A stretch of 24,000 nt of DNA from Clostridia bacterium. Lineage in GTDB: Bacteria > Bacillota > Clostridia > Oscillospirales > CAG-272. The notes beneath the pieces are model-generated. The model had not been told where the DNA came from and searched no databases. It worked only from the letters and a program-made list of their open reading frames with translations. Both the position numbers and the translations under genes were made by a program. Positions 1,629 to 24,000 of this stretch are shown here, piece after piece. The stretch lies in assembly GCA_017443595.1 (NCBI GenBank), contig JAFSYU010000026.1, positions 1,701-25,700 on the forward strand, written 5' to 3'. Position 1 is the stretch's first letter, and each line of letters begins with the position of its first letter.

Positions 1629-1753
1629 TAGAGTTTTTTATAATCGTCTTTTTTTTGATTGGTTGCTTTTTTGTAAGAGGGTAACGCAGCAACTGTAGGT
1701 TGTTGTATTTCCGTAATAAATCGTCTCTGCGGTTATAGTCGAACCCATTAAAC

Positions 1754-1767
1754 AGTACTTATGTACT
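1754..1767. promoter_or_regulatory. Palindrome AGTAC-TTAT-GTACT with Cheo-box geometry (5-N4-5); possible variant SOS/LexA site
   Basis: Perfect inverted repeat with a 4-nt spacer, 43 nt upstream of the -35 of the polymerase promoter. Each arm differs from the Firmicute LexA consensus CGAAC-N4-GTTCG at two of five positions (one within the GAAC/GTTC core, one at the outer flank). Confidence 0.2.
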
Positions 1768-1809
1768 ATGCCGTTTACTGTCTTTTCGTACCGGCTGCCC
1801 TGAAATCAG

Positions 1810-1838
1810 TTGACAGTTGCAGGTAAATGTGGTATAAT
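1810..1838 (+). promoter_or_regulatory. Consensus sigma-A promoter of the polymerase operon
   Basis: TTGACA (1810-1815), 17-nt spacer, TGgTATAAT (extended -10; TATAAT at 1833-1838), about 60 nt upstream of the ATG at 1900. Confidence 0.65.
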
Positions 1839-1899
1839 TTCAACATAAGAGTATTTTAGGGCATATCTTTTAATAATTGCAATAAAAAACGGTGGGCAT

Positions 1900-3408: not shown

Positions 3409-3440
3409 TCCCGGTCAACCCCGGTTTTCAGGAGGACGGA

Positions 3441-3875: not shown

Positions 3876-3921
3876 TTGACCGTTATGGCAAAAATTTTCA
3901 ACTCCAGGGGAGGATTTTAAA

Positions 3922-4914: not shown

Positions 4915-4950
4915 TGATACGGGCAGATCCGGGCTTGCGGAGGAGAAAAA

Positions 4951-5550
4951 ATGAAGATCTATGATATTTCGCAGGAGGTTTTTGGTTGCAGAGTATATCC
5001 GGGCGACCCGGCGCCCGAAAAAAAGCTGCTTTGTTCAACGGAAAAGGGCGACGTATGCAATCTTACGGCTTTCAGTATGTGCGCTCACAACGGCACGCAC
5101 GTTGACGCGCCGTTTCATTTCATCAAAGGAGGAAAAACCGTAGACGGGGTATGTTTGGATACGTTTGTTGGACCGGCTTACGTTGCAGAACATAACGGGA
5201 CCGTCACAGGTGAAGACGCCGTAAAAATACTTGAAAAAGCGGAAGAAAAGGACCCCGGGGCTGAAAAAAGAATTCTGATTAAAGGAGATGCAACGGTTTC
5301 TTCGGAGGCGGCAAAAGTCTTTGCTTCAAAGAAAATACTGCTGCTTGGCAACGAGTCACAGACCGTCGGGCCTGAAGACGCGCCTATGGAAGTACATCTC
5401 ATACTGCTGGAATCAGGCGTCGTATTGCTTGAAGGTATCCGTTTGGCAGATGTTCCCGAAGGCGTTTATTTTTTAAACGCGGCGCCGCTGAATCTGTCCG
5501 GCGCGGACGGCTCTCCGTGCAGAGCAATACTGATAGATGCCGGTGAATAA
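4951..5550 (+). CDS. Cyclase-family protein / kynurenine formamidase-like (arylformamidase fold)
   Basis: GGAGG RBS. The motif CAHNGTHVDAPFHF matches the HxGTHxDAPxH signature of the putative-cyclase/KynB family. Length of 199 aa is typical. Confidence 0.8.
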   Translation: MKIYDISQEVFGCRVYPGDPAPEKKLLCSTEKGDVCNLTAFSMCAHNGTHVDAPFHFIKGGKTVDGVCLDTFVGPAYVAEHNGTVTGEDAVKILEKAEEKDPGAEKRILIKGDATVSSEAAKVFASKKILLLGNESQTVGPEDAPMEVHLILLESGVVLLEGIRLADVPEGVYFLNAAPLNLSGADGSPCRAILIDAGE

Positions 5551-5552
5551 AT

Positions 5553-5653
5553 TCCGGCTTTCAAACAAACTCAAAATAGTCCTCGATCACCTTGATGAAA
5601 ACCCCGTTATATCCGTAACGTATTTTTTGCTGGACAAAAAGAAATCCGGCGGC
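5553..5653 (+). repeat. Direct repeat copy B (starts 2 nt after the stop of the cyclase-family gene)
   Basis: See copy A. Weaker similarity continues to about 5700 (GGCTGGA...TGATCTnnnnGAG is shared with 3810-3835). Confidence 0.9.
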
Positions 5654-5689
5654 AGCGGAGGAGAATACGAAGGCTGGAATCCGCACTGA
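5553..5689 (+). pseudogene. Decayed fragment of a second YolD-like gene
   Basis: In the frame equivalent to the intact gene it reads RLSNKLKIVLDHLDENPVISVTYFLLDKKKSGGSGGEYEGWNPH*, versus RLSSKLKIVLDHLDENPVVSVTYFLPDKRKSGGRYVTV... in the intact copy. It has no start codon and no RBS, and the N-terminal half is missing. Confidence 0.65.
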
Positions 5690-5787
5690 TCTTACGAGTC
5701 CTCCGTGTCAGTTTCCCTTTGAGGATCACAGATACATGATCATTTCATTCAACTAAAGCGCCCGGCGGGTGATTTCTTTGACTATAG

Positions 5788-5949: not shown

Positions 5950-5978
5950 TTGATTTTTTTTGAATCTTATGGTATTAT
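5950..5978 (+). promoter_or_regulatory. Candidate sigma-A promoter of the STAS-NRPS-esterase operon
   Basis: TTGATT (5950-5955), 17-nt spacer, TGgTATTAT (TATTAT at 5973-5978). Lies in an AT-rich region. A second extended -10 (TGtTATAAT) sits about 60 nt further upstream. Confidence 0.45.
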
Positions 5979-6012
5979 AGAAAAAAAAGATCTATTGGAG
6001 GTATCATTCATT

Positions 6013-6309
6013 ATGCAAATCAACAAAATCCAGGAAGGAACAGCCCTGCTGATCAAACTCAGCGGACGTCTTGACACAACTACCGCGCCGGATCTTGAAG
6101 CGGAAGTGAACAGCTCTGTTGACGGTATCGAACAGATCACGTTTGATTTTACGGATCTTGAGTACATATCCTCCGCCGGACTGCGCGTTCTGCTTTATAC
6201 ACACAAGCGCATGAGCGGCAAGGGCGGACTGAAGATCACTCACGTATGCGAAACCGTTATGGAGATCTTTGAAGTCACAGGTTTTTCCGACATTCTGGAT
6301 ATCGAATAA
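6013..6309 (+). CDS. STAS-domain protein (SpoIIAA/RsbV-like anti-sigma-factor antagonist)
   Basis: 98 aa. GGAGG lies 11 nt before the ATG at 6013 (the track start at 5950 is a TTG with no RBS). The pattern LSGRLDTTTAPDLE...FDFTDLEYISSAGLRVLL...THVCETVMEIFEVTGF is the canonical STAS layout. The Ser pair at 6169-6174 sits where SpoIIAA is phosphorylated. Confidence 0.85.
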   Translation: MQINKIQEGTALLIKLSGRLDTTTAPDLEAEVNSSVDGIEQITFDFTDLEYISSAGLRVLLYTHKRMSGKGGLKITHVCETVMEIFEVTGFSDILDIE

Positions 6310-6328
6310 CAAACGGAGGATTTATCGT

Positions 6329-10982: not shown

Positions 10983-11008
10983 GCCGACTGTTCTTAAGGA
11001 CAGTCGGC
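10983..11008. repeat. Near-perfect 26-nt palindrome GCCGACTGTTCTT/AAGGACAGTCGGC
   Basis: 13+13 nt with one mismatch, 27 nt after the esterase stop. No T-run follows, so it is not a canonical terminator. Confidence 0.8.
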
Positions 11009-11009
11009 A

Positions 11010-11190
11010 GCGAAATCCACCCTGTCGGGTGGGTGAAATCGCCTGCGGCGGTGAAATTGCCCTGCGGGCAGTGAAATCCGCCTCGGCGGCGGGTGGGTGG
11101 ATTTCATTTCACCGAACGCGACAGTGTTCGATTTCACCTGAGGGCGACGCCCGAAGATTTCACCTTTTGCCGTAAGGCAAAAGATTTCAC
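11010..11190. repeat. Array of short, sequence-diverse hairpins separated by a conserved heptamer (G[C/T]GAAAT x4, then ATTTCAC x4)
   Basis: GCGAAAT at 11010; GTGAAAT at 11033, 11051 and 11071; ATTTCAC at 11106, 11131, 11157 and 11184. Hairpins between them: CCACCC/GGGTGG (11017-11032), CGCC/GGCG (11040-11050), TGCCC/GGGCA (11058-11070), CCGCC/GGCGG (11078-11089), CGAAC/GTTCG (11113-11130), GGGC/GCCC (11142-11152), CTTTTGCC/GGCAAAAG (11164-11183). A further hairpin GACGTTT/AAACGTC lies at 11197-11217. Confidence 0.85.
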
Positions 11191-11243
11191 TATTCTGACG
11201 TTTGGCACACAAACGTCCTGCTTGCGTCGATCTGCGACAAAAA

Positions 11244-11288
11244 CCGACTGAAATAAGGATTTTTCCTTACCTCAGCCGGTTTTTATTT
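11244..11288 (+). terminator. Probable rho-independent terminator
   Basis: Imperfect 15-nt stem CCGACTGAAATAAGG / CCTTACCTCAGCCGG (12 of 15 pairs), loop ATTTTT, then TTTTTATTT. Confidence 0.5.
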
Positions 11289-11438
11289 ACTGTCCTTCAG
11301 AGCACCTCGCGCATACAAGGTCTTTTTTATCCGCAAAAGATCCGTTAAGATCCGATTCCGGGTCGGAAACGACAGAAATACTATAAAAACATCCGGTTCA
11401 ACTCCGATTATATTAAGGAATAAATTTTTAAAATATTA

Positions 11439-11467: not shown

Positions 11468-11511
11468 ATAATCAGTTGATAATTCAAATAATCAAACGCT
11501 GTGAGGACGGT

Positions 11512-12453
11512 ATGAACCTTCTTAACATGAAATACGCGATCGCTATCGCTGAAACAAAGTCGCTCAACAAAGCGGCGGAAAAACTTTATATAGGTCAGCC
11601 TGCGCTCAGCCGTTCCATAAAAGAGCTTGAGGCAAATCTCGGCACGTCGCTTTTTGAGCGCAGCGTAAAGGGAATGACGCTTACGCCGGACGGTGAAAAA
11701 TTCATCCGCTACGCCAAGGTCATTTTGAACAAGGTAGACGAGATAGAGGAGATGTTCAAGACCGAAACGGATAACAAGATCAGGTTTTCCATATGTGTGC
11801 CGAGGGTCAGCTATATCTGCGACGCGTTCGTCAATTTCACAAGACACTTAAAAAACGACGGCAGCATTGAGATATTTTATCAGGAAACGAACGCCATGCG
11901 CGCGGTAAAGAACATTTTAAACGACGACTATAAGCTGGGCGTTGTGCGCTTTGCGGAAAGCTATGCTAAGTATTATGACGATATGTTCCGCGAAAAATCG
12001 CTTGAAAGCAGGATAATAACTCGGTTTAAATACGTTCTTATAATGAGCCGTCATTCGCCGCTTGCCAAGCTTGAGCAGATAACCTTTGACGATCTCGGCG
12101 ATTATATAGAGATCGCGCACGCGGATCCGTACGTTCCTTCTCTTCCCGTTTCCGAGGTCAAAAAAGAGGAGTTGTCTGATAACTGCCAAAGACACATATT
12201 CGTATTTGAGCGCGGTTCACAGTTCCAGCTTTTGTCAGAAAACGTGGATACGTTTATGTGGGTGTCGCCCGTGCAGAAGTCGCTTCTTGAAAAATTTGAC
12301 CTTGTGCAGAGGTACTGCGTTGACAACAACCGCGAGTATAACGACGTGCTTATCTACCGCGACGATTACAGATTATCTCAGCTTGACAATATGTTTATAG
12401 AGGAGCTCGTTTACTCAAAACGCGTCAACCTTGACAACTGCATAATCAAGTAA
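11512..12453 (+). CDS. LysR-family transcriptional regulator
   Basis: N-terminal HTH MNLLNMKYAIAIAETKSLNKAAEKLYIGQPALSRSIKELEANLGTSLFERSVKGMTLTPDGEKF is the classic LysR signature, with a ~200-aa effector domain after it. GAGGA RBS before the ATG at 11512; the track start at 11476 has no RBS. Confidence 0.9.
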   Translation: MNLLNMKYAIAIAETKSLNKAAEKLYIGQPALSRSIKELEANLGTSLFERSVKGMTLTPDGEKFIRYAKVILNKVDEIEEMFKTETDNKIRFSICVPRVSYICDAFVNFTRHLKNDGSIEIFYQETNAMRAVKNILNDDYKLGVVRFAESYAKYYDDMFREKSLESRIITRFKYVLIMSRHSPLAKLEQITFDDLGDYIEIAHADPYVPSLPVSEVKKEELSDNCQRHIFVFERGSQFQLLSENVDTFMWVSPVQKSLLEKFDLVQRYCVDNNREYNDVLIYRDDYRLSQLDNMFIEELVYSKRVNLDNCIIK

Positions 12454-12508
12454 CTTTCCGGTTTTTGATACCGGTTATCAAAAATTCTCATTATCAATAT
12501 CAAAAAAA

Positions 12509-12544
12509 GCAGACGAATCTTACAAAAAACGCCTGCTTTTTTTG
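12509..12544 (+). terminator. Rho-independent terminator after the LysR gene
   Basis: Stem GCAGACG (12509-12515) / CGCCTGC (12530-12536) with one mismatch, then TTTTTTT. Confidence 0.55.
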
Positions 12545-12578: not shown

Positions 12579-12623
12579 ATACCGTAAATCAAAATCATAC
12601 CGTTTACCAAAAGTGATAACGGT
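12579..12623. promoter_or_regulatory. Candidate regulator-binding motifs upstream of the hydrogenase promoter
   Basis: Direct repeat ATACCGT at 12579-12585 and 12597-12603. Inverted repeat ACCGTT (12599-12604) - N13 - AACGGT (12618-12623). The motifs end 17 nt upstream of the -35. Confidence 0.3.
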
Positions 12624-12639
12624 GTTGCTTTATAGGCAT

Positions 12640-12668
12640 TTTACATTAAGGAATTTATGTGTTATTAT
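12640..12668 (+). promoter_or_regulatory. Sigma-A promoter of the hydrogenase/adhE gene string
   Basis: TTTACA (12640-12645), 17-nt spacer, TGtTATTAT (TATTAT at 12663-12668), 34 nt upstream of the hydC start. Confidence 0.55.
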
Positions 12669-12701
12669 GAGCCTGCGAAATAAAACGTCAAAGGAAAGGA
12701 A

Positions 12702-13199
12702 ATGTACATGAACGAAAACTTTGATTATAGCGTAGTGGAATCCATACTGCAGGAACATCAGTGCAGTGAAAAAGCGATAATCGCAATACTGCAGGACGTT
12801 CAGGAACACTATCACTACCTGCCGTCGGAAGCATTTCCGTATATGGCAAAAAAACTTAACGTAAGCGAGGCGCGCATTTACAGCGTGGCGACCTTTTACG
12901 AAAATTTCTCACTTGAACCCAAAGGCAAATACGTTGTCAAGGTATGTGACGGCACGGCGTGCCACGTAAGAAAATCCATACCGATACTTGACAGGCTCCG
13001 CGCGGAGCTCGGACTTTCCGAAAAAAAGAAAACAACGGATGATCTTTTGTTTACGGTGGAGACCGTTTCCTGCCTCGGCGCCTGCGGGCTTGCCCCGGTA
13101 ATGACGGTAAACGACAAGGTACACCCCGCCATGACTCCGGAAAAAGCATCCGCGCTCATAAAAGAACTGATAGAGAAGGAGAAAAACAATGCTGACTGA
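12702..13199 (+). CDS. hydC: [FeFe]-hydrogenase subunit HydC (NuoE-like thioredoxin-fold [2Fe-2S] protein)
   Basis: CDGTACH ... CLGACGLAPV (Cx4C...Cx3C NuoE pattern), 165 aa, overlapping hydB by 11 nt. An alternative ATG at 12708 is equally RBS-compatible. Confidence 0.9.
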   Translation: MYMNENFDYSVVESILQEHQCSEKAIIAILQDVQEHYHYLPSEAFPYMAKKLNVSEARIYSVATFYENFSLEPKGKYVVKVCDGTACHVRKSIPILDRLRAELGLSEKKKTTDDLLFTVETVSCLGACGLAPVMTVNDKVHPAMTPEKASALIKELIEKEKNNAD

Positions 13200-15063
13200 C
13201 AGGCAGGAATTTCTTTCATATAAGGAAAAAGTCGCCAAAGCGTACGAAATGCAGCAAAGAAAGATAATCGTCTGCTGCGGTACGGGCTGTGTTGCCGGCG
13301 GATCGCTTGACGTTTACGCCAAGCTCAAAGAGCTTATGGAAGCAGAGGGCATAAACGTTGAGGTCACACTTGAAGAAGAACCGCACAAAAACAACGTAGG
13401 ACTTAAAAAGAGCGGCTGTCACGGCTTCTGCGAAATGGGACCGCTTGTAAGAATTGAGCCGCACGGCTGGCTTTACACAAAGGTCCACGTGGAAGACTGC
13501 GAAGAGATAGTTGAAAAAACGATCAAAAACGGCGAATTCATAGACAGACTCGCCTACAGAATAAACGGACAGATATACAAAGAGCAGGAAGAGATACCGT
13601 TTTACAAAAGACAAAAACGCATAGTCCTTGATCTTTGCGGAAAAATAGACGCGGACTCCATAGGCGAATACATCGCCGTAGGCGGTTACACCGCAGCCGT
13701 AAAAGCGATGTTTGAAATGAACGGCGAGCAGATAGTTGACGAGGTCAAAAAATCCGGTATCCGCGGAAGGGGCGGCGCGGGATTCCCGACCGGAATCAAG
13801 TGGGATACGGTAAGAAAGACCGAATCCGACAAAAAGTACGTCGTCTGCAACGGCGACGAGGGCGACCCCGGCGCGTTCATGGACAGAAGCATCATGGAAG
13901 GCGCTCCCCACAGAGTGCTTGAAGGCATGATAATAGCCGGTATCGCATGCGGCGCCGATGAAGGATACATCTACGTGCGCGCGGAATATCCGCTGGCCGT
14001 CAAGAGACTCAAAAACGCCATCAAACAGGCGGAAGAGCTCGGAATACTCGGCGAGAATATCCTCGACTCCGGTTTCTCATTCAAAATACACATCAACAGA
14101 GGCGCGGGAGCGTTCGTCTGCGGCGAGGAAACGGCGCTTATTAATTCCATAGAAGGACAGCGCGGCTTTCCGAGAGTAAGACCGCCTCTGACCGTCATAA
14201 AAGGACTTTTCGGCAAGCCCACGGTTCCAAACAACGTTGAAACGTACGCAAACATCCCGAACATAATTAACAACGGCGGCGAGTGGTACAGCAGCATAGG
14301 CACGCAGAACAGCCCCGGAACAAAGGCGTTTGCGCTGACCGGCAACATAAACAACACCGGTCTGATAGAAGTTCCCATGGGAACTACGCTCCGCGAGATA
14401 ATATTCGACATAGGCGGAGGAATGAAGAACGGCGGAGAATTCAAAGCCGTGCAGATAGGCGGTCCGTCCGGCGCCTGCCTTACAAAAGAACATCTTGACC
14501 TGCCGCTTGACTTTGACAATCTGAAAAAAGTCGGCGCTATGGTCGGCTCCGGCGGTCTGGTTGTCGTTGACGAACATACCTGCATGGTTGAATTTGCAAG
14601 ATTCTTCATGCACTTCACGCAGAATGAATCGTGCGGCAAATGCGTGCCCTGCCGCGAAGGCACGAAGCGTATGCTCCAGATACTTGAGCGTATAGTGGCG
14701 GGCGAGGGAAGAGACGGAGACATAGAGCTTTTGCTCGAGCTTGCGGACACGATATGCAACACCGCGTTATGCGGTCTCGGCAAAACGGCGCCTAACCCCG
14801 TTATCAGCACAATAAAGAACTTCAGAAGCGAATATGAGGCGCATATTTACGATAAGAAATGCCCGGCGGGAGCGTGCAGCAAGCTCAAGACGATAAAGAT
14901 AGACCCGCAGATCTGCAAAGGCTGCTCCAAGTGCGCGCGCCAGTGCCCCGTAAACGCTATAAGCGGCAAGATAAAAGAGCCGTTTGAAATAGACCTTTCA
15001 AAGTGCATAAGATGCGGAAGCTGCGTATCGGCATGCCCGTTCAAGGCTATCAAGGAGGGATGA
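13189..15063 (+). CDS. hydB: [FeFe]-hydrogenase subunit HydB (NuoF-like NAD(H)/FMN subunit)
   Basis: N-terminal [2Fe-2S] pattern (CCGTGC...CHGFC). FMN/NADH region GRGGAGFPTG and CNGDEGDPGAF. [4Fe-4S] ESCGKCVPCREG. C-terminal 2x[4Fe-4S] CKGCSKCARQCP / CIRCGSCVSACP. Confidence 0.93.
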   Translation: MLTDRQEFLSYKEKVAKAYEMQQRKIIVCCGTGCVAGGSLDVYAKLKELMEAEGINVEVTLEEEPHKNNVGLKKSGCHGFCEMGPLVRIEPHGWLYTKVHVEDCEEIVEKTIKNGEFIDRLAYRINGQIYKEQEEIPFYKRQKRIVLDLCGKIDADSIGEYIAVGGYTAAVKAMFEMNGEQIVDEVKKSGIRGRGGAGFPTGIKWDTVRKTESDKKYVVCNGDEGDPGAFMDRSIMEGAPHRVLEGMIIAGIACGADEGYIYVRAEYPLAVKRLKNAIKQAEELGILGENILDSGFSFKIHINRGAGAFVCGEETALINSIEGQRGFPRVRPPLTVIKGLFGKPTVPNNVETYANIPNIINNGGEWYSSIGTQNSPGTKAFALTGNINNTGLIEVPMGTTLREIIFDIGGGMKNGGEFKAVQIGGPSGACLTKEHLDLPLDFDNLKKVGAMVGSGGLVVVDEHTCMVEFARFFMHFTQNESCGKCVPCREGTKRMLQILERIVAGEGRDGDIELLLELADTICNTALCGLGKTAPNPVISTIKNFRSEYEAHIYDKKCPAGACSKLKTIKIDPQICKGCSKCARQCPVNAISGKIKEPFEIDLSKCIRCGSCVSACPFKAIKEG

Positions 15064-15065
15064 AA

Positions 15066-16769
15066 ATGACACAAAAACAGTATATGACCGTTGACGGGAT
15101 ACCGGTAGAGATCAACGGTGAAAAAAATCTGCTTGAAATAGTCAGAAAGCTCGGCATAAAAATGCCCACGTTCTGCTATCACTCCGAGCTTTCGGTCTAC
15201 GGCGCGTGCCGTATGTGCATGGTAGAAAATGAAAGGGGCGGTCTTGACGCGGCGTGCTCCACTCCTCCGAGACCCGGCATGGAAATAAAGACAAACACGG
15301 AAAGGCTCCGCCGTTACCGCAAGAACATACTTGAGCTGCTTCTGGCAAATCACTGCCGCGACTGCACGACCTGCGAGAGCAACACGCAGTGCAAGCTCCA
15401 GGATCTTGCGATGACTTTCAATATAGAAGGCGTAAGATTCCCGAACAGCGCAAAATCCACCGTAAACGACGACACGTCATCGGTCTGCATAACCCGCGAC
15501 GCCGGAAAATGCATACTCTGCGGCGACTGCGTCAGAATGTGCAACGAAACACAGCACGTCGGCGCCATAGACTTTGCGTTCAGAGGTTCAAAAATGACGA
15601 TAAGCACGGCTTTCGGCAAGCCGATAGCGGAATCGCCCTGCGTAGGCTGCGGCCAGTGCGCGGCGGTCTGCCCCACGGGCGCGATAGTCGTTAAAAACGA
15701 TATGGATAAAGTTTGGGCGGCGCTTGACGATCCCAACGTCAAGACCACGGTGCAGGTAGCTCCGGCGGTCCGCGTGGCGGTCGGCAGAGAGCTCGGCTGC
15801 GGAAGCGGCGAAAACGTCATGGGCAAGATAGTCGCGGCTCTGCGCAGACTCGGCTTCAACGAAATATACGATACTATCCTCGGCGCCGATCTTACGGTAA
15901 TCGAGGAGAGCGAGGAGTTCTTACAGAGAGTCGAATCAGGCGAAAAGCTTCCGCTCATAACCTCCTGCTGCCCCGGCTGGATAAGATTCTGCGAAAAGAA
16001 ATTCCCGGAATTTCTGCCTAACGTTTCGACCTGCCGTTCGCCTATGCAGATGTTCGCCTCGATCTTATACGATCAGGGAAAGAAATCTTCCAAAAAACAG
16101 TTCAACGTCGCCGTAATGCCCTGCACGGCAAAGAAATTTGAGGCGGCGAGAGACGAATTCAAAACAGACGGAGAAAAACACGTTGACGCGGTGCTTACAA
16201 CACAGGAGCTTATCCGCATGATAAAAGAGTCAAACATCGTGTTCAGAGAGCTTGAGCCGGAAGCGGTCGATATGCCTTTCGGAACCATCTCCGGCGCCGG
16301 ACTCATATTCGGCGTGACGGGCGGCGTTACCGAAGCGGTGCTTCGCCGCGTGGTATCGAACAAATCCTACTCCGGACTTATAAGCATTTCACACGCCGGA
16401 CAGCGCGGACGCGACGGAATAAAAGAATTTACGTTCCCGTACGGCGAGACCGAGCTTAAGATAGCCGTTGTAAGCGGGCTCGGCAATGCGGAAGAGATAC
16501 TTAACAGAGTAAAAGCGGGAGAACACTTTGACTTCATTGAGATCATGGCTTGTCCCGGCGGCTGCGTAAGCGGCGGCGGTCAGCCCTTTGCACCGTCACC
16601 CGAACATCGGAAGCGCGATAAGGGCATGTATGAATCCGAAAGACAGCTTTCCATCAGACGTTCCGAAGAAAACCCGGTGATCACAACGCTTTACCGCGAT
16701 ATCATCAAAGGCAAGGTACACGAGCTGCTCCACGTTGATTACGTAAAGGACGGAGGATCAACAAAATGA
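15066..16769 (+). CDS. hydA: Catalytic [FeFe]-hydrogenase subunit HydA (bifurcating-type architecture)
   Basis: AGGAGGG RBS, then ATG at 15066. N-terminal [2Fe-2S] CYHSELSVYGACRMC. FeS clusters CILCGDCVRMC / CVGCGQCAAVCP. All three canonical H-cluster motifs are present: TSCCPGW, MPCTAKKFE, EIMACPGGCVSGGGQP. Confidence 0.93.
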   Translation: MTQKQYMTVDGIPVEINGEKNLLEIVRKLGIKMPTFCYHSELSVYGACRMCMVENERGGLDAACSTPPRPGMEIKTNTERLRRYRKNILELLLANHCRDCTTCESNTQCKLQDLAMTFNIEGVRFPNSAKSTVNDDTSSVCITRDAGKCILCGDCVRMCNETQHVGAIDFAFRGSKMTISTAFGKPIAESPCVGCGQCAAVCPTGAIVVKNDMDKVWAALDDPNVKTTVQVAPAVRVAVGRELGCGSGENVMGKIVAALRRLGFNEIYDTILGADLTVIEESEEFLQRVESGEKLPLITSCCPGWIRFCEKKFPEFLPNVSTCRSPMQMFASILYDQGKKSSKKQFNVAVMPCTAKKFEAARDEFKTDGEKHVDAVLTTQELIRMIKESNIVFRELEPEAVDMPFGTISGAGLIFGVTGGVTEAVLRRVVSNKSYSGLISISHAGQRGRDGIKEFTFPYGETELKIAVVSGLGNAEEILNRVKAGEHFDFIEIMACPGGCVSGGGQPFAPSPEHRKRDKGMYESERQLSIRRSEENPVITTLYRDIIKGKVHELLHVDYVKDGGSTK

Positions 16770-17017
16770 TAACCGTTAAGATATGCGTCGGCACAAACTG
16801 TCACTTAAACGGCGGATACAACGTGATCTCATCTTTTCAGCATATGATAGAGGAATACGATCTTCATGACAAGGTAGTTCTGGAAGCATCCTTCTGCATG
16901 AGAGAATGCTCAAACAGCGGAGCTGCCGTAACGGTGAACGACGTAAAATACAGGGTAGACCCGGAAAGATCAAGACTCTTTTTCAAAGAAAAGGTACTGC
17001 CCCTTACGATCAGCTAA
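16766..17017 (+). CDS. Small thioredoxin-like [2Fe-2S] ferredoxin-domain protein (paralogue 1 of 3)
   Basis: 83 aa. The ATG overlaps the hydA stop (ATGA). C7-x4-C12 ... C44-x3-C48 (CVGTNC...CMREC) is the same spacing as in HydC/NuoE. Confidence 0.75.
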   Translation: MITVKICVGTNCHLNGGYNVISSFQHMIEEYDLHDKVVLEASFCMRECSNSGAAVTVNDVKYRVDPERSRLFFKEKVLPLTIS

Positions 17018-17104
17018 ACACTATATATATTGACAGGCGCGCAGCGGCGGATCCCACCACCTTTCCGCCGCCGCAAAACCGAATAAAATGAGGAGAAATG
17101 TATT

Positions 17105-19804
17105 ATGGATGTCAACAAAAGAGAAGCCGTTGACGGCGTCAGCAAACTTGAAGAAGCTCTGAGCAGAGTCAGAGCCGCACAGAAAAAGTTTTCCGCCTAC
17201 ACGGAAGAACAGGTAGATAGTATATTCAAAGCCGCGGCAACAGCGGCAAACCGGGCCCGTCTTCCGCTTGCCAAGCTTGCGGTAGAAGAAACGGGTATGG
17301 GCGTTGTTGAAGACAAGGTGATCAAAAACAACTACGCCGCCGAGCATATCTATAACGCATACAGGAACGTAAAGACCTGCGGCGTGATCTGGGAAGACAA
17401 ATCATACGGAACAAAGAAAATTGCGGAGCCCGTCGGTATAATCGGCGCGGTCATCCCAACCACGAACCCGACGTCCACGGCTATATTCAAATGCCTTATC
17501 TCGCTTAAAACGAGAAACGGCATAGTCATAAGCCCCCATCCGAGAGCAAAAAGATCGACTATCGAGGCGGCTAAGATTATACTTGACGCCGCGGTCAAAG
17601 CCGGCGCGCCCGAGGGAATAATCGAATGGATAGACGTCCCGTCTCTTGAAATGACCAATCTTCTTATGAAGGAAGCGGATATCATCCTCGCCACCGGCGG
17701 TCCCAGCATGGTAAAAGCCGCGTATTCCTCAGGCAAACCCGCGGTCGGCGTCGGCCCCGGCAACACCCCGGCAATAATAGACGAATCAGCCGATATCCTG
17801 CTTGCCGTAAGCTCCGTCATCCATTCCAAAACGTTTGACAACGGTATGATCTGCGCGTCAGAGCAATCGGTCATAGTACACGATAAAATATATAACAAAG
17901 TAAGAGAAGAATTCGCTTCCAGAGGCTGTTATTTCTTAAAAGGCGACGAAACGGAAAAAGTAAGAAAAACGATCCTTATAAACGGCGCGCTCAACGCCGG
18001 TATAGTAGGCCAGAAGGCGTCAAGGATCGCGGAACTTGCCGGCGTCAAAGTTCCCGAGGGAACAAAGGTGCTTATAGGAGAGGTGGAAAGCGTTGATCCT
18101 TCCGAGGAATTCGCGCACGAAAAACTGTCTCCGGTACTTGCCATGTATCACGCCAAAGACATTCAGGACGCTTTTGCCAAAGCGGAACGTCTTATAGCTG
18201 ACGGCGGCTACGGCCACACCTCTTCCATATATCTTGACACAACAAAGGCTCAGGACGTTTTGGACGAATTTTCAAGCCGTATGAAGACCTGCCGCATACT
18301 CGTGAACACCCCGTCTTCTCAGGGCGGCATAGGCGACCTTTACAACTTCAAGCTCGCTCCCTCGCTCACGCTCGGCTGCGGCTCATGGGGCGGCAACAGC
18401 GTATCCGAAAACGTCGGAGTAAAACACCTGCTCAACATAAAAACAGTTGCCGAAAGGAGAGAAAACATGCTTTGGTTCCGCGCACCCGAAAAGGTATATA
18501 TAAAAAAAGGCTGTCTGCCCGTTGCGCTTGACGAGCTGAAGACGGTCATGAACAAAAAGAAAGCGTTCATAGTGACCGACAGCTTCTTGTATTCGCACGG
18601 CTGCACGAAGCCGATAACGGATAAGCTTGATGAAATGGGAATCGAACATTCCGTATTCTTCAACGTCGCTCCCGATCCCACTCTCGCCTGCGCAAAAGAA
18701 GGCGCGGCTCAGATGGCGGCGTTCCGGCCGGACTGCATAATCGCGCTCGGCGGCGGCTCCGCAATGGACGCGGGCAAGATCATGTGGGTGATGTACGAAC
18801 ATCCCGACGTGGACTTCATGGATATGGCCATGCGCTTTATCGATATCAGAAAAAGAGTTTACACGTTCCCGAAAATGGGTGAAAAAGCGTATTTCGTAGC
18901 TATCCCGACCTCAGCCGGCACAGGCTCCGAGGTAACGCCTTTCGCGGTCATTACCGACGAGCAGAGCGGCGTAAAATATCCGCTTGCAGACTATCAGCTC
19001 ATGCCGAACATGGCTATAATAGATACGGATTTCCATATGACAGCTCCTAAAGGACTTACGGCGGCGTCCGGTATAGACGCGGTAAGCCACGCGCTTGAAG
19101 CGTACGCTTCCGTTATGGCTACCGATTACACGGACGGACTTGCAAAACAGGCGCTGCAGACGATATTCAAATATCTGCCGAGAGCTTACGAAAACGGACT
19201 TACCGACGTTGAAGCGCGTGAAAAAATGGCAAACGCGGCAACTATGGCGGGTATGGCGTTTGCAAACGCTTTCTTAGGCGTTTGCCACTCCATGGCTCAC
19301 AAGCTCGGCGCTTTCCATCACATCCCGCACGGCGTTGCAAACGCTCTCATGCTTGAAGAGGTGCTGAGATACAACTCCGCTGAAGCTCCCGTAAAAATGG
19401 GCACTTTCTCACAGTACGCATATCCGCATACGCTCAGAAGATACGCGGAAGTCGCGGAAAGCCTCGGTCTTTCCGGCGCGGACGATAAGGAAAAACTTGA
19501 AAGCCTTATAAAAGCGATCAACGATCTTAAAGCCGTCGTCGGCATCAAACCTACGATAAGAGATTACGTACCGGACGAAAAAGACTTCCTTGACAGACTT
19601 GACGCCATGGTAGAGCAGGCGTTTGACGATCAGTGCACCGGCGCAAACCCTAGATATCCGCTTATGAGCGAGATAAAGCAGATGTATCTTAACGCATATT
19701 ACGGCAAACACTTTACGGAGCCGCAGATGCCCAAGACGTCCGCTTCGGAATTGACAAGCGATCCTCACGATTTCAAACGCGTCTACAGCAAAGCTAAAAT
19801 ATAA
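17105..19804 (+). CDS. adhE: Bifunctional acetaldehyde-CoA / alcohol dehydrogenase
   Basis: 899 aa with an AGGAG RBS. ALDH half carries the catalytic Cys motif FDNGMICASEQS. Fe-ADH half has GGGSAMDAGK and the metal ligands CHSMAHKLGAFHHIPHG. Confidence 0.94.
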   Translation: MDVNKREAVDGVSKLEEALSRVRAAQKKFSAYTEEQVDSIFKAAATAANRARLPLAKLAVEETGMGVVEDKVIKNNYAAEHIYNAYRNVKTCGVIWEDKSYGTKKIAEPVGIIGAVIPTTNPTSTAIFKCLISLKTRNGIVISPHPRAKRSTIEAAKIILDAAVKAGAPEGIIEWIDVPSLEMTNLLMKEADIILATGGPSMVKAAYSSGKPAVGVGPGNTPAIIDESADILLAVSSVIHSKTFDNGMICASEQSVIVHDKIYNKVREEFASRGCYFLKGDETEKVRKTILINGALNAGIVGQKASRIAELAGVKVPEGTKVLIGEVESVDPSEEFAHEKLSPVLAMYHAKDIQDAFAKAERLIADGGYGHTSSIYLDTTKAQDVLDEFSSRMKTCRILVNTPSSQGGIGDLYNFKLAPSLTLGCGSWGGNSVSENVGVKHLLNIKTVAERRENMLWFRAPEKVYIKKGCLPVALDELKTVMNKKKAFIVTDSFLYSHGCTKPITDKLDEMGIEHSVFFNVAPDPTLACAKEGAAQMAAFRPDCIIALGGGSAMDAGKIMWVMYEHPDVDFMDMAMRFIDIRKRVYTFPKMGEKAYFVAIPTSAGTGSEVTPFAVITDEQSGVKYPLADYQLMPNMAIIDTDFHMTAPKGLTAASGIDAVSHALEAYASVMATDYTDGLAKQALQTIFKYLPRAYENGLTDVEAREKMANAATMAGMAFANAFLGVCHSMAHKLGAFHHIPHGVANALMLEEVLRYNSAEAPVKMGTFSQYAYPHTLRRYAEVAESLGLSGADDKEKLESLIKAINDLKAVVGIKPTIRDYVPDEKDFLDRLDAMVEQAFDDQCTGANPRYPLMSEIKQMYLNAYYGKHFTEPQMPKTSASELTSDPHDFKRVYSKAKI

Positions 19805-19822
19805 TACAGCGGGGTGATAGAT

Positions 19823-20572
19823 ATGAAGTTTGACAGAATGATAGCGGTAAGAAACAACAAAACCGTTTACAGAAGCGGAGATCTCTGCTACAAAGTATTT
19901 GACGACACATTTTCCAAAGCAAATATTTTAAACGAAGCTCTCAACCAGGCGAGAGTCGAAGAGACCGGACTTAAAATACCGAAGCTCCGCGAGGTCGGTA
20001 TAATAGACGGCAAATGGGCTATCGTTTACGAGTTCGTTGAAGGCAAAACACTTTCTCAGCTCATCACCGAGGACCCCGAAAACAAAAGCAAATATCTGCA
20101 CCGTCTTGTTGACGTACAGACGGAGATCAACTCAAAGACCTGCCCGCTTTTAACAAAGCATACGGACAAAATGAAGCGCAAAATTGCGGAAACCGATTTT
20201 GACGAGACGACGAAATATGAGTTGAACGTCAGACTTGAATCCATGCCTAAGCACAATAAACTGCTGCACGGAGATCTTACGCCGTCCAACGTCATAATCA
20301 CGCCGGCAGACGAGGCTTTCATAATCGACTGGTCGCACGCCACGCAGGGCAACGCGTCCGCGGACGCCGCAAGAACGTATCTCACCTTCTGGCTCAAGGG
20401 CGATATAGAAGGCGCGGAAGAATATCTTGATATATTCTGCGAGAAGAGCAATACGCCGAAAAAATACGTTCAGAAATGGATGTCTATAGTAGCGGCTTCA
20501 CAGAGCGTAAAGGGCAGCGAGAAGGAAGCGGAATTCTTAAAGAACTGGGTAAACGTTGCCGAGTATCAATAA
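19823..20572 (+). CDS. Kinase-fold phosphotransferase (APH / choline-kinase / Bud32-like), putative Ser/Thr kinase of the sensory module
   Basis: Starts 19 nt after the adhE stop (or GTG at 19814). Catalytic loop LLHGDLTPSNVII (Asp at 20273-20275), metal-binding FIIDWSHA, candidate ATP Lys in LCYKVF. No Gly-rich GxGxxG loop. Confidence 0.7.
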   Translation: MKFDRMIAVRNNKTVYRSGDLCYKVFDDTFSKANILNEALNQARVEETGLKIPKLREVGIIDGKWAIVYEFVEGKTLSQLITEDPENKSKYLHRLVDVQTEINSKTCPLLTKHTDKMKRKIAETDFDETTKYELNVRLESMPKHNKLLHGDLTPSNVIITPADEAFIIDWSHATQGNASADAARTYLTFWLKGDIEGAEEYLDIFCEKSNTPKKYVQKWMSIVAASQSVKGSEKEAEFLKNWVNVAEYQ

Positions 20573-20582
20573 GGAGTTTTGT

Positions 20583-20825
20583 ATGAAGGTAGTTGTTTGC
20601 ATAGGTTCCTCATGCTATATAAAAGGCTCCGGAAAGGTAGTCGATTATCTGCAGTATAAGATAAAACAGGACGGCGTGGGGAACAAGGTGGAACTTTCCG
20701 GTACTTTCTGCACCGGACAATGTCAGAAGGGCATTTGCGTATCGGTTGACGGCAAGCTTTATTCCGTATCGGTCGACAACGTGGAAGAATTCTACGAGGA
20801 AGAAATAAAAGCGAAACTCAAATAG
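20583..20825 (+). CDS. Small thioredoxin-like [2Fe-2S] ferredoxin-domain protein (paralogue 2 of 3)
   Basis: AAGGAG RBS 6 nt before the ATG at 20583 (the track start at 20556 lies inside the kinase gene). 80 aa, with CIGSSC...CTGQC. Confidence 0.75.
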   Translation: MKVVVCIGSSCYIKGSGKVVDYLQYKIKQDGVGNKVELSGTFCTGQCQKGICVSVDGKLYSVSVDNVEEFYEEEIKAKLK

Positions 20826-20831
20826 ATCGAT

Positions 20832-20862
20832 AATGCCCGTAAATTTCCCGTTTACGGGCATT
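20832..20862 (+). terminator. Strong hairpin with a weak U-tract (possible attenuator or partial terminator)
   Basis: Perfect 12-bp stem AATGCCCGTAAA / TTTACGGGCATT with a 7-nt loop, followed only by ATTGTG. Confidence 0.4.
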
Positions 20863-20887
20863 ATTGTGAAAATAAAGGAAAAAGATC

Positions 20888-21157
20888 ATGTTATATGTAA
20901 AAATCTGCATAGGCAGTTCCTGTTACGTTAAAGGCTCACAGACTTTGATAGAAAAATTTCAGGAAAAAATGAAAGAATACGGGTGTGAGAAGGAAATAGA
21001 TTTCGTAGGCAGCTTCTGCACCGGAAAATGCAACCGGGTCGGAGTTACCTTTACGGTAGGAAATGAAATTTATACCGGTATAACAACGGATAATTTCAAC
21101 GAGTTCTTTACAAATACCGTCCTGCCGGCGCTGAAAAAATCAAAACAGGAGGCGTAA
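20888..21157 (+). CDS. Small thioredoxin-like [2Fe-2S] ferredoxin-domain protein (paralogue 3 of 3)
   Basis: 89 aa, with CIGSSC...CTGKC. Its stop lies 1 nt before the hydS start. Confidence 0.75.
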   Translation: MLYVKICIGSSCYVKGSQTLIEKFQEKMKEYGCEKEIDFVGSFCTGKCNRVGVTFTVGNEIYTGITTDNFNEFFTNTVLPALKKSKQEA

Positions 21158-21158
21158 A

Positions 21159-22835
21159 ATGTCCGATTGCCTGACGTTCAAGAAGTCAAACTGCAAAAAC
21201 TGTTATAAATGCATTCGCCACTGCCCGGTAAAATCAATAAGATTTTCCGGCAACCAGGCTCATATCATAAACAACGAATGCATACTCTGCGGTCACTGCT
21301 TCGTCGTATGTCCGCAGAACGCCAAACAAATAACGGATGAGACGGAAAAAGTCAAAGTGCTTATGAGCAGCGGCGATCCCGTTTACGCAAGCCTTGCCCC
21401 GTCGTTTATCGCAAATTTTGACGGTATAGGCATAAACGGAATGAGAGCTGCGCTTAAAAAGCTCGGCTTTGCCGGCGTGGAGGAGACCGCGCTCGGCGCA
21501 TCCGCGGTAAAAACGGAATACGAAAGAATGATAGACAGCGGAGAACACGATATAATAATATCATCCTGCTGCCATTCGGTAAATCTGCTTATACAAAAAT
21601 ACTATCCGCACCTTATACCGTATCTTGCCAACACGCTTTCGCCCATGCAGGAAAACTGCCGCGATACAAAAAAGCGCGTACCGAATGCAAAGGTAGTGTT
21701 TATAGGTCCGTGCATAGCCAAAAAGGACGAGGCTCAGCATTACGCCGGCATAGTTGACGCTGTTCTTACGTACGACGAGCTTACAAAATGGCTCAAAGCG
21801 GAAAATATAACGCTTATACCGGATATGGACGATACGGAAAAGAGCCGCGCCAGACTTTTCCCGACTACGGGCGGCATTTTAAAGACTTTTGCAAAAAGAA
21901 ATCCCGACTATCAGTATATGGCGATAGACGGGGTGGAGAACTGCATAGCGGCGTTAAAGGAAATAGAGGCGGGCAATATACATAAATGCTTTATAGAGAT
22001 GTCCGCGTGCGTGGGAAGCTGCGTGGGCGGACCGGTCATGGAAAAATATCATCCGTCTCCCATTAAGGACTTTGCGGCGGTGTCAAAATACGCCGGCAAA
22101 GAGGATTTTGATATAAAGCAGCCCGATGAGACGGAAATACGCAAGATGTTTGAGCCGATAGACCTTGCAAACAGCACTCCGAGCGAATATGAGATAAAAG
22201 AGATATTAGGCAGAATGGGCAAAACAAAGCCCGAGGATGAGCTCAACTGCGGCTCCTGCGGATACAACACCTGCCGCGAAAAAGCGATCGCCATATATCA
22301 CGGCAAAGCGGAGATATCCATGTGCCTGCCGTATCTTAAAGAAAAAGCGGAGAGCTTTTCCGGCTGTATCGTAAAAAACACGCCTAACGGCATACTCGTT
22401 ACAAACGATCTGCTTGAAGTGCAGGAAATAAACGAATCCGCAATGAGGATATTGAAAGTAAGATCGTGCTCCGATATATTAGGCGAACAGCTTATACGCG
22501 TGCTGGATCCTTCGCCTTTTCTTGAGGTTTTGAAGACAAAGCAGAACATAAAAGACAAAAGAGTTTACCTGGCGGAATACGACAAATACGTTGAGCAGAC
22601 TATAATATACGATAAGAACTACAATCTTATAGTATGTATTTTAAGAGACGTTACGGATGAGGAATCCGAGAGGGAAAAGAAAGAGAGCATAAGCCGGCAG
22701 ACTGTGGAGATAGCGGACAACGTTGTTGACAAGCAGATGCGCATAGTTCAGGAGATAGCGTCGCTTTTGGGTGAGACAGTTGCCGAAACGAAAATAGCGC
22801 TGACAAAGCTGAAGGAGAGTATTTCAAATGAATAA
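21159..22835 (+). CDS. hydS: Sensory-type [FeFe] hydrogenase (HydS-like, group C) with a C-terminal PAS domain
   Basis: N-terminal 2x[4Fe-4S] CKNCYKCIRHCP / CILCGHCFVVCP. Divergent H-cluster motifs SSCCHSV (21561-), GPCIAKKDE (21705-), EMSACVGSCVGGP (21996-). Extra Cx2Cx4Cx16C (22248-22325). PAS-like region ~22356-22658. Glu/Lys-rich helical tail. Confidence 0.88.
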   Translation: MSDCLTFKKSNCKNCYKCIRHCPVKSIRFSGNQAHIINNECILCGHCFVVCPQNAKQITDETEKVKVLMSSGDPVYASLAPSFIANFDGIGINGMRAALKKLGFAGVEETALGASAVKTEYERMIDSGEHDIIISSCCHSVNLLIQKYYPHLIPYLANTLSPMQENCRDTKKRVPNAKVVFIGPCIAKKDEAQHYAGIVDAVLTYDELTKWLKAENITLIPDMDDTEKSRARLFPTTGGILKTFAKRNPDYQYMAIDGVENCIAALKEIEAGNIHKCFIEMSACVGSCVGGPVMEKYHPSPIKDFAAVSKYAGKEDFDIKQPDETEIRKMFEPIDLANSTPSEYEIKEILGRMGKTKPEDELNCGSCGYNTCREKAIAIYHGKAEISMCLPYLKEKAESFSGCIVKNTPNGILVTNDLLEVQEINESAMRILKVRSCSDILGEQLIRVLDPSPFLEVLKTKQNIKDKRVYLAEYDKYVEQTIIYDKNYNLIVCILRDVTDEESEREKKESISRQTVEIADNVVDKQMRIVQEIASLLGETVAETKIALTKLKESISNE

Positions 22836-24000
22836 TCTTTACGCGGACGTCGGTTACAAAAGCATAAACCATTACGGCGAGCAGCTTTGCGGAGACCACG
22901 TGGATATAGTTGAGCACGACGAGGATTCTTACGTCGCCGTGCTTGCCGACGGGCTCGGCAGCGGTGTCAAAGCGAGTATTTTATCAACGCTCACAAGCAA
23001 GATAATATCAACTCTGATAGCCGAGGGTCTGACGCTTTCCGACTGCGTGGAGACTATAGCGCAGACGCTGCCGATCTGCTCCGTGCGCGGCGTGGCTTAT
23101 TCTACCTTTACCATAATGCACGTCGTAAAAAACCGTGAAATAGAACTTATACAGTACGATAACCCGCTGACCGTGCTCATACGCGACGGGAAGAATTACG
23201 ATTATCCCAAAACGGAGCTGAACATAGGCGGCAAAAAAATATACCGCTCGTTCATCCGTTTGCAGGAGGACGACGTTTTTATCGCAATGAGCGACGGATG
23301 CCCGCACGCCGGCATAGGCCTGGAATACAATTTCGGCTGGCGGCGCGAGGAGATAATAGGCTTTATGGAGGCGGCGGTCGCAGGCGGTTATACCGCCAAA
23401 ACGCTTTCTTCGATGCTAATAGACGAGGTCTACAGCCTCTACGGCGGAGAACCGGGAGACGACGCGACCGTCTGCATCATAAAAGCCCGCAAAAGAGCGC
23501 CCGTCAACATCCTTTTCGGTCCGCCGAGAAACAGAGACGACTGCGATAAAATGATGTCGCTGTTCTTTTCAAAAGAGGGCAAGCACATAGTATGCGGCGG
23601 AACTACAGCTTCCATCGCTTCGGAATATTTAAAAAAGCCGCTGCAGACAAGTCTTAATTTTGTGTCGGACGACGTGCCGCCCGTTGCAAAGATAGAAGGC
23701 GTGGATCTTGTTACTGAGGGCGTCATAACCGTAAACAAAGTAGTTGAATATGCAAACGACGTTATAGGAGAAAACAAGCTCTATGAAAAATGGAGCTACG
23801 GTCAGGACGGCGCCTCGCTTATCAGCCGCATTTTGTTTGAGGAAGCGACGGATATAAACTTTTACGTAGGCAGAGCCGTGAATCCGGCTCATCAGAACCC
23901 CGACCTGCCGATAAACTTCAGTATTAAAATGAACCTTGTGGAAGAGCTTTCAAAGGCTCTGCGCCAGATGGGCAAAAAAATAAAGGTCAGTTATTTTTGA
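22828..24000 (+). CDS. SpoIIE/PP2C-family Ser/Thr phosphatase with an unassigned ~165-aa C-terminal domain
   Basis: Overlaps the hydS stop by 8 nt. PP2C metal-binding motifs: CGDHVD, VLADGLGSGVKASI, IAMSDGCPHAG, GDDATVCIIK (aa 1-222). Residues 224-390 (23497-23997) have no motif I recognise. Confidence 0.85.
   Translation: MNNLYADVGYKSINHYGEQLCGDHVDIVEHDEDSYVAVLADGLGSGVKASILSTLTSKIISTLIAEGLTLSDCVETIAQTLPICSVRGVAYSTFTIMHVVKNREIELIQYDNPLTVLIRDGKNYDYPKTELNIGGKKIYRSFIRLQEDDVFIAMSDGCPHAGIGLEYNFGWRREEIIGFMEAAVAGGYTAKTLSSMLIDEVYSLYGGEPGDDATVCIIKARKRAPVNILFGPPRNRDDCDKMMSLFFSKEGKHIVCGGTTASIASEYLKKPLQTSLNFVSDDVPPVAKIEGVDLVTEGVITVNKVVEYANDVIGENKLYEKWSYGQDGASLISRILFEEATDINFYVGRAVNPAHQNPDLPINFSIKMNLVEELSKALRQMGKKIKVSYF

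Follow-up and report, generated by a model that had tools for sequence, protein, structure and literature searches.

How an [FeFe]-hydrogenase of the electron-bifurcating type came to stand in one gene string with an alcohol dehydrogenase and a putative hydrogen (H2) sensor is the question raised by a metagenome contig of a rumen Clostridia bacterium (JAFSYU010000026.1). A stretch of 24,000 nucleotides (nt) of this contig, hereafter the window, was considered; the region analysed spans window positions 12640-24000, and its open reading frames (ORFs) were typed by Pfam, NCBIfam, PDB and Foldseek comparison. We propose that the locus is probably a lineage-specific fusion of a hydCBA-fd1 operon with a Ruminococcus-type H2-sensing ethanol module, in which the fused unit would be transcribed from a LysR-associated promoter. 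The novelty lies in hydCBA-fd1 standing in place of rex and in the missing hydA2, while the sensor-plus-adhE core has already been published. The way in which fermenting bacteria sense H2 and switch electron sinks between H2 and ethanol matters for methane formation in the rumen and for strains used in biofuel production.

The string comprises ten plus-strand ORFs, which were assigned with Pfam and NCBIfam in the order hydC-hydB-hydA-fd1-adhE-kinase-fd2-fd3-hydS-PP2C (Table 1), and the identities, order and coordinates given for them in the original prediction were all confirmed. Its description of tight junctions, with overlaps of 11, 4 and 8 nt and gaps of no more than 87 nt, was likewise borne out on remeasuring: hydC and hydB overlap by 11 nt, hydA and fd1 by 4 nt, and the PP2C gene adjoins hydS and overlaps its stop codon by 8 nt; fd1 and adhE are separated by 87 nt, fd2 and fd3 by 62 nt, and fd3 and hydS by 1 nt. 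The remaining junctions depend on the start codon chosen, i.e., hydB/hydA is an overlap of 4 nt from the ATG at 15060 or a gap of 2 nt from the gene caller's start at 15066, adhE/kinase is a gap of 9 or 18 nt, and kinase/fd2 is a gap of 10 nt from the ATG with a ribosome-binding site at 20583 or an overlap of 17 nt from the unlikely TTG of the longest ORF. The start of hydC is probably at 12708 since the first ATG, at 12702, is ACG in the sister lineage L124 (compared contigs and loci carry L numbers). As all genes of the window lie on the plus strand, co-orientation alone is weak evidence for an operon.

Table 1. Features of the locus, in window coordinates.
Feature	Position	Strand	Description
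lysR	11476..12453	+	Pfam HTH_1; directly upstream of the cluster, same orientation
Intrinsic terminator of lysR	12502..12543	+	stem then T run; -15.8 kcal/mol, z = -3.5
Candidate LysR operator	12579..12624		half-sites ATACCGT at 12579 and 12597; inverted AACGGTG at 12618
Sigma-70-type promoter	12640..12668	+	TTTACA, 17-nt spacer, TATTAT, extended -10 TG; scan score 10/12
hydC	12702/12708-13199	+	NuoE-like 2Fe-2S subunit; Pfam 2Fe-2S_thioredx at 1e-50
hydB	13189-15063	+	flavin/NADH subunit; Pfam
hydA	15066-16769	+	catalytic [FeFe] hydrogenase subunit; Pfam, NCBIfam
fd1	16766-17017	+	83-amino-acid thioredoxin-like 2Fe-2S protein; Pfam match just under cut-off
fd1/adhE stem-loop	17041..17074	+	GC-rich; about -20 kcal/mol, z = -1.6; no U tract here
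adhE	17105-19804	+	bifunctional acetaldehyde-CoA/alcohol dehydrogenase; NCBIfam NF010378
APH/RIO-fold kinase	19814/19823-20572	+	249-252 amino acids; Pfam APH and RIO1
fd2	20583-20825	+	small thioredoxin-like 2Fe-2S protein; Pfam, four-Cys pattern
fd2/fd3 stem-loop	20828..20866	+	17-bp stem; -23.4 kcal/mol, z = -5.5; no U tract
fd3	20888-21157	+	small thioredoxin-like 2Fe-2S protein; Pfam, cysteines
hydS	21159-22835	+	558-amino-acid putative H2-sensing [FeFe] hydrogenase; Pfam
PP2C/SpoIIE phosphatase	22828-24000	+	390 amino acids; Pfam SpoIIE, fold matches

The genes from adhE onward have a counterpart in Ruminococcus albus 7. A tblastn search of plasmid records placed its HydS, which is 65% identical to the window HydS, on pRUMAL01, where lysR is followed by rex-adhE-phosphotransferase-fd-fd-hydS-PP2C (SpoIIE phosphatase)-hydA2. 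Both loci have an upstream lysR and the series adhE-kinase-fd-fd-hydS-PP2C in the same order and orientation, and identity amounts to 74% for adhE, 66% for the kinase, about 50% for the small 2Fe-2S proteins, 65% for HydS and 77% for PP2C. However, R. albus 7 carries rex and, after PP2C, the gene of a ferredoxin-only hydrogenase, hydA2, whereas rex, a Rex box and hydA2 are lacking in the window, which instead holds a four-gene HydABC-type operon between promoter and adhE and, in addition, two conserved hairpins. The R. albus 7 eight-gene cluster was reportedly described by Zheng et al. in 2014. The expression of this cluster, which is putatively co-transcribed, dropped 111-fold in low-H2 co-culture, where an H2 consumer was present, no other change in the R. 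albus transcriptome being as large, and Greening et al. (2019) proposed that it is controlled by the co-transcribed sensory hydrogenase; the HydABC of R. albus is encoded elsewhere and was expressed similarly in both conditions (PMC6776011). Since R. albus 7 thus has a sensor-plus-adhE cluster with expression data, the window locus does not open the H2-sensing question anew, and the linkage between adhE and sensor, from which the original prediction chiefly drew its interest in the locus, had been published. Nor does the phrase "natural, self-contained model", used there of the locus, suit an uncultured metagenome lineage, R. albus 7 being cultured and having a transcriptome.

To place the two arrangements, HydS relatives were surveyed with one genome per species; at least 550 were found, and the best 80 loci (67-76% identity, from gut and rumen Clostridia) were kept and annotated by tblastn with the window proteins together with the Rex and HydA2 of R. 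albus. Among the 52 loci whose sequence extends 5.5 kb or more beyond hydS on the upstream side, the upstream genes include the kinase in 45, lysR in 41 (R. albus 7 included), adhE in 35 and rex in 28; furthermore, hydA2 follows PP2C in 61 of 65 surveyed loci. Judged from these counts, having adhE is the common, ancestral condition for clusters of this type, and the idea that it was inserted into a hyd/hydS cluster, on which the original prediction had framed its proposed frequency survey, is rejected: with adhE in 35/52 loci, the hydrogenase operon is the added part. In none of the best 80 species loci does hydCBA-fd1 immediately precede adhE, which makes the hydrogenase operon an unusual addition. 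In the window-lineage contigs, no hydA2 lies after PP2C, the place being taken by convergent or unrelated genes. The locus shows both rex and hydA2 to be dispensable parts of the sensor cassette.

The added operon consists of adjacent genes for a NuoE-like, a NuoF-like and an H-cluster subunit, which overlap or abut. HydB combines a flavin mononucleotide (FMN)/reduced nicotinamide adenine dinucleotide (NADH) domain with an N-terminal 2Fe-2S domain (2Fe-2S_thioredx, residues 23-110) and a C-terminal 2x[4Fe-4S] domain (Fer4, residues 569-622); these two extra domains are what separates bifurcating from non-bifurcating HydB according to a published account (PMC7311640). The protein matches the bifurcating HydB of Thermoanaerobacter kivui end to end (8a6t_B, 836 bits), and also 7q4v_B and 7p5h_B. 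For HydA, the best solved match is 8a6t_A (560 bits); it has N-terminal FeS domains and an H-cluster domain, in which the motifs TSCCPGW, MPCTAKK and EIMACPGGC are intact and of the catalytic type. By these domain and motif criteria, hydCBA encodes an [FeFe] hydrogenase of the electron-bifurcating type, for which activity coupled to NADH and ferredoxin is predicted. The solved bifurcating HydABC complexes of T. kivui (8a6t), Acetobacterium woodii (7q4v) and Thermotoga maritima (7p5h) resemble it in the full-length HydB and HydA matches, the same cofactor domains and a NuoE-like HydC; the window operon differs from them in an additional, separate 83-amino-acid 2Fe-2S protein encoded after hydA and in its fusion to adhE and the sensor module, and bifurcation is predicted here from the sequence. 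The additional protein, Fd1, has cysteines at positions 7, 12, 44 and 48, and its gene always follows hydA in this hydrogenase type, including the stand-alone operons of Yeguia hominis and loci L086-L088.

The same ten genes stand together in at least four related metagenome lineages, and their block is unchanged in each setting: in the window's own lineage (L001, L002, L121), in L114-L116 with 95% PP2C identity and different downstream genes, in L117-L119, where PP2C is 98% identical and the downstream neighbourhood is different again, and in the JGI contig L120. These contigs bear directly on whether the linkage of hydCBA-fd1 to adhE could be an assembly chimera or a one-off rearrangement devoid of functional meaning, as might be suspected from the fact that the source is a metagenome scaffold and that the junction occurs in none of the best 80 GTDB species loci. 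However, contigs that were assembled independently, out of several samples and studies, share the identical junction; the lineages concerned have 94-98% protein identity and differ in their flanking genes, and the junction sequence itself is conserved. A chimera is effectively refuted by the independent contigs, and we regard this whole explanation as exceedingly improbable.

Elsewhere, hydCBA-fd1 is a stand-alone operon, as in Y. hominis, where it lies between nfnAB-like genes and ldh, and in L086 and L088, the former with a canonical terminator after fd1. In the metagenome cluster L087, the order is rex-kinase-fd-fd-hydS-PP2C-hydC-hydB-hydA-fd1, with 16 nt between PP2C and hydC, so that the same HydABC-fd1 subtype (69-75% identity) forms one tight string with the same sensor module. 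There, however, the hydrogenase is at the 3' end, in the usual hydA2 slot, rex is kept and adhE is absent. As the fusions in the window and in L087 differ, a bifurcating-type hydrogenase has become linked with the sensor genes on two or more occasions and in different positions, which shows the sensor module to be a portable cassette. Two further loci, L089 and L107, contain a hydA of the window subtype (70-72% identity) directly followed by a hydA2-type gene, an order suggesting that the two hydrogenase types have been rearranged relative to each other in other ways too. HydABC is associated with the cluster in a third manner in L013 (positions 1-5700), from a high-GC gut metagenome-assembled genome, in which a more distant hydC-hydB-hydA (41-51% identity) immediately precedes lysR and the adhE-sensor cluster and shares their orientation.

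The second hydrogenase of the string, HydS, comprises a 2x[4Fe-4S] domain, an H-cluster domain (Fe_hyd_lg_C, 2.8e-48), a further Cys-rich FeS domain and a C-terminal PAS-like region. All four cysteine ligands of the H-cluster are present (C138, C185, C284 and C288, within SSCCHS, GPC and EMSACVGSC), and the positions equivalent to M353 and M497 of CpI are occupied by Gly and Ser. Small residues in place of these two methionines, which catalytic enzymes conserve, are the pattern of sensory enzymes such as T. maritima HydS (PMC10055695), to which the window protein is akin in the cluster cysteines, in the Gly/Ser pair and perhaps in a C-terminal region of PAS type. Contrary to the T. maritima enzyme, which has Ala at the position of CpI C299, the window HydS retains Cys, a residue found there in only about 17% of sensory sequences (PMC10055695). 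H2 sensing by HydS is still termed putative or predicted in the literature (PMC6776011, PMC10055695).

A comparable set of genes is the hfsABCD operon of Thermoanaerobacterium saccharolyticum and its relatives which, going by the descriptions in the papers, contains a PAS-containing, HydS-like HfsB beside the serine phosphatase HfsC and a hydrogenase. Its adhE lies outside the operon, the linked HfsD is HydA2-like, and the operon is genetically connected to adhE expression and ethanol yield (PMC5707799, PMC11837493). By the same descriptions, the window has counterparts of HfsB and HfsC, whereas it has no HfsD and HfsA is without a clear counterpart.

The ethanol-forming enzyme is assigned with high scores: AdhE matches NF010378 at 1377.6 bits, above the equivalog cut-off of 951, as well as Pfam Aldedh, Fe-ADH and ADH_Fe_C, i.e., it is an acetylating aldehyde dehydrogenase fused to an iron alcohol dehydrogenase, and it shares 74-84% identity with the adhE products embedded in related sensor clusters. 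The kinase possesses an intact HGDxxxxN catalytic loop (HGDLTPSN) and an IDW metal site. The term "kinase" in the original prediction was loose; the APH/RIO fold and its motifs stand, but as the nearest solved relatives, choline kinase and small Ser/Thr kinases, are matched with weak E-values, the protein is best described as an APH/choline-kinase/RIO-fold phosphotransferase that may act on a protein. Almost all related loci keep the small 2Fe-2S gene fd2 ahead of hydS. A LysR gene, a metallophosphatase gene and a homologue of the cluster kinase (38% identity) also occur together in Y. hominis (L122, positions 1-1738), 8 kb upstream of hydCBA-fd1; HydS is lacking from this trio, and the association of LysR, phosphatase and kinase recurs there with a different phosphatase family.

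The phosphatase carries its PP2C domain in residues 1-225, where Foldseek matched SpoIIE, RsbX and RsbU with E-values down to 6e-12 and the motifs GD, DGLGSG, SDG and GDDAT, which belong to a PP2C fold with metal-binding aspartates, are invariant. Homologues 80-82% identical to it are found across thousands of metagenome proteins. The PP2C domain is followed by a highly conserved alpha/beta domain of about 165 amino acids (residues ~222-390; window 23491-24000) with many invariant residues, HIVCGGTT among them. This C-terminal domain had no Pfam match, the PDB sequence search gave a single match at chance level, and a model of the domain alone (predicted local distance difference test, pLDDT, 82.5) had no PDB fold match better than E = 0.02 with a template modelling (TM) score of 0.43. 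A fused STAS-like phospho-acceptor or a kinase domain was considered for it and is unsupported by the Pfam, PDB sequence and fold searches.

Expression of the string would begin at the promoter upstream of hydC, which had been located in the original prediction and was recovered by our scan as the only strong match upstream of a correctly oriented gene. Its hexamers and the TG are conserved in L124, the lineage with 94% HydC identity, despite a diverged spacer, which fits a working promoter; promoter-like matches in the region exceed chance modestly (22 found against 13.8 +/- 3.0 expected). The terminator scan detected no plus-strand terminator-like site in any intergenic gap of the ten genes, in agreement with the earlier statement that canonical terminators are lacking between them, and the promoter scan detected no sigma-70-like promoter in the gaps before adhE, the kinase or fd3. 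A TTGACA at 17030 was examined as an internal promoter and discarded, having no -10 partner and not being conserved in sister lineages. In Rfam, the gaps had no match at the gathering threshold or at E <= 1. On the source contig (L001), a very strong bidirectional terminator (-34.5 kcal/mol) lies about 330 nt after the PP2C stop codon and is followed by convergent genes, and the string therefore ends there.

In the window's strain, the 3' untranslated region of the operon would also include an element of about 285 nt that resembles a miniature inverted-repeat transposable element (L001 12870-13155, about 27 nt past the window end), with 23-nt terminal inverted repeats and a predicted fold of -130 kcal/mol (z = -9.6); it has no Rfam match. 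A second copy, 98.6% identical and flanked by TAAGG, is present at a different site in the contig of another strain (L121 3404-3683).

The candidate regulator of this promoter is LysR. The dyad of the candidate operator is centred about 65 bp upstream of the predicted transcription start, and the block 12579..12624 is invariant in four lineage contigs. Related clusters have a 25-bp dyad, ATATCG-N13-CGATAT (ATATCGATAAAnAnAATAcCGATAT), located 90-135 nt before the first gene, which 12 loci, R. albus 7 among them, match exactly and 32 of 45 match within 3 mismatches; the R. albus 7 sequence that we name as candidate LysR target is ATATCGATAAAGATAATATCGATAT. Together, the conserved lysR gene and the dyad point to LysR as the likely dedicated regulator of the cluster. 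In the literature, we found no paper linking LysR to the control of this cluster; a LysR protein with a conserved candidate operator in most species is a concrete candidate for the transcriptional output. Control by Rex was considered as well. Near-perfect Rex boxes are found in many related loci; in the window cluster there is no rex homologue, and the scan for TTGTTAANNNNTTAACAA returned only a site with 3 mismatches at 12549 in a T-rich stretch, so that Rex control of this locus is rejected.

The two longest gaps in the string, fd1/adhE and fd2/fd3, hold stem-loops that the original prediction did not mention, both of which are absent from the R. albus-type loci compared. In the fd1/adhE hairpin, the 13-nt core of the loop, CACCACCTTTCCG, does not vary among four lineages, and the stem is followed by TTTG in the sister lineages L114 and L117 though not in the window or L120; the simplest reading is that this hairpin once terminated a separate hydCBA-fd1 operon and has since decayed, so that transcription can now read through it. 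The fd2/fd3 stem pairs in 95% of cells across four lineages, with one pair seen as A-U, G-C and U-A, and fd2 and fd3 abut in relatives outside the window lineage. A repeat resembling repetitive extragenic palindromic elements was rejected for this second hairpin, which occurs as a single copy in the window and only at this junction in the compared loci. The hairpins may grade expression between the abundant enzymes and the low-copy sensor proteins. The operon-like layout put forward in the original prediction is thus correct, but its single transcription unit becomes only plausible in view of the hairpins; likewise, the internal promoters or terminators that it named as evidence to the contrary were absent from the gap scans, but the two conserved hairpins could split or grade expression.

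We propose that transcription would start at 12640-12668 and run through all ten genes to the terminator some 330 nt past the PP2C stop, outside the window, a single transcript being plausible from the layout, and that the upstream LysR protein would control the promoter through the dyad near -65. HydS would bind H2 at an H-cluster whose tuning favours sensing over turnover, and its PAS region would bias the kinase/PP2C pair and so set the phosphorylation state of some target. The output, as in R. albus 7, would be higher cluster expression at high H2, with NADH disposed of as ethanol. The hairpins would probably lower or stabilise segments of the transcript such that the level of synthesis differs between the abundant enzymes and the low-copy sensor proteins. 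HydABC would be co-expressed with AdhE and not alternate with it because the linked hydrogenase is of the reversible, NADH- and ferredoxin-dependent type.

Several observations weigh against this scheme or parts of it. The PAS assignment of HydS is weak, being derived from a PAS_9 match over residues 409-500 that reaches 22.9 bits and falls under the cut-off of 27, in a region conserved with R. albus HydS. The window half-sites, ATACCG-N17-CGGTGT, differ from the family dyad, ATATCG-N13-CGATAT, in both sequence and spacing, so that the assignment of LysR stays provisional, and since the window is without rex and Rex boxes, its regulation may differ from that of R. albus. The resemblance of the fd1/adhE hairpin to a decayed terminator, with TTTG in two sister lineages, implies that transcription from upstream may reach adhE and the sensor genes only in part. 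Moreover, the R. albus model treats HydABC and AdhE as alternatives for disposing of NADH, and it would not be obviously sensible for high H2 to induce both. Their co-location might be accounted for if the lineage had only this hydrogenase, if the hairpins uncoupled expression, or if HydABC ran in reverse at high H2 and gave reductant for ethanol.

These points lead to explanations in which the ten genes are wired differently. The string may consist of two or three differently expressed sub-units, namely hydCBA-fd1, adhE-kinase-fd2 and fd3-hydS-PP2C, with the hairpins as leaky terminators, attenuators or sites of processing or stability, the hydrogenase high and roughly constant, and adhE and the sensor on regulated read-through. 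Lineage-conserved stem-loops in both long gaps, the terminator right after fd1 in stand-alone hydCBA-fd1 operons, the TTTG of L114 and L117, and an invariant loop sequence suggestive of a sequence-specific partner all speak for such a division. However, a U tract is missing from both hairpins in this strain, the plus-strand terminator scan of the gaps was empty, the fd1/adhE fold is of unremarkable stability given its composition (z = -1.6), and the want of a sigma-70-like promoter between fd1 and adhE or before fd3 means that the downstream genes need upstream transcription; we therefore hold this division to be a tentative possibility. Alternatively, the sensor module might act mainly post-translationally, in that the kinase/PP2C pair targets AdhE, a HydABC subunit or LysR and H2 switches enzyme activity or electron routing instead of transcription of the operon, with HydABC perhaps reversing at high H2 to feed NADH to AdhE (hydrogen cycling). 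The co-location of HydABC and AdhE, by which a plain on/off co-induction by H2 is hard to rationalise, favours this, as do the trio of LysR, phosphatase and kinase (38% identity) lacking HydS near the Y. hominis hydCBA and the hydrogen cycling via a HydABCD-type enzyme proposed for ethanol formation in Thermoanaerobacterium (PMC11837493). Against it stand the documented response of R. albus, which is transcriptional (PMC6776011), the rise of adhE transcript levels upon hfsB deletion in Thermoanaerobacterium (PMC5707799), and the lack of an identified phospho-acceptor, the C-terminal domain of PP2C having no STAS or other fold match; a mainly post-translational role appears unlikely to us. A bolder extension, which we put forward as no better than a long shot, is that in this rumen lineage the H2 sensor was rewired from a ferredoxin-only to a reversible bifurcating hydrogenase, such that high H2 co-induces HydABC and AdhE, uptake by HydABC supplies NADH and reduced ferredoxin for ethanol, the string thereby forming an ethanol operon with hydrogen cycling built in, and the conserved upstream LysR is the output of HydS, kinase and PP2C. 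The fusion of hydCBA-fd1 with the sensor module, transcribed from the LysR-associated promoter, remains the reading that we favour.

Upstream of lysR, the window contains further features. At 5950-9319 (+), the gene of a 119-amino-acid STAS-domain protein overlaps, just upstream, that of a 1016-amino-acid single-module protein resembling nonribosomal peptide synthetases, with adenylation, carrier and condensation domains; a carboxylesterase gene comes next, and no link of these genes to the hydrogenase cluster was seen. Between the carboxylesterase gene and lysR lies a Gut-1 RNA (Rfam RF01706) at 11008-11082 (+), which scored 75.7 bits against a gathering threshold of 50. About 330 nt around this RNA (window 10983-11312) are absent from the contig of the other strain (L121), which points to a presence/absence polymorphism between strains.

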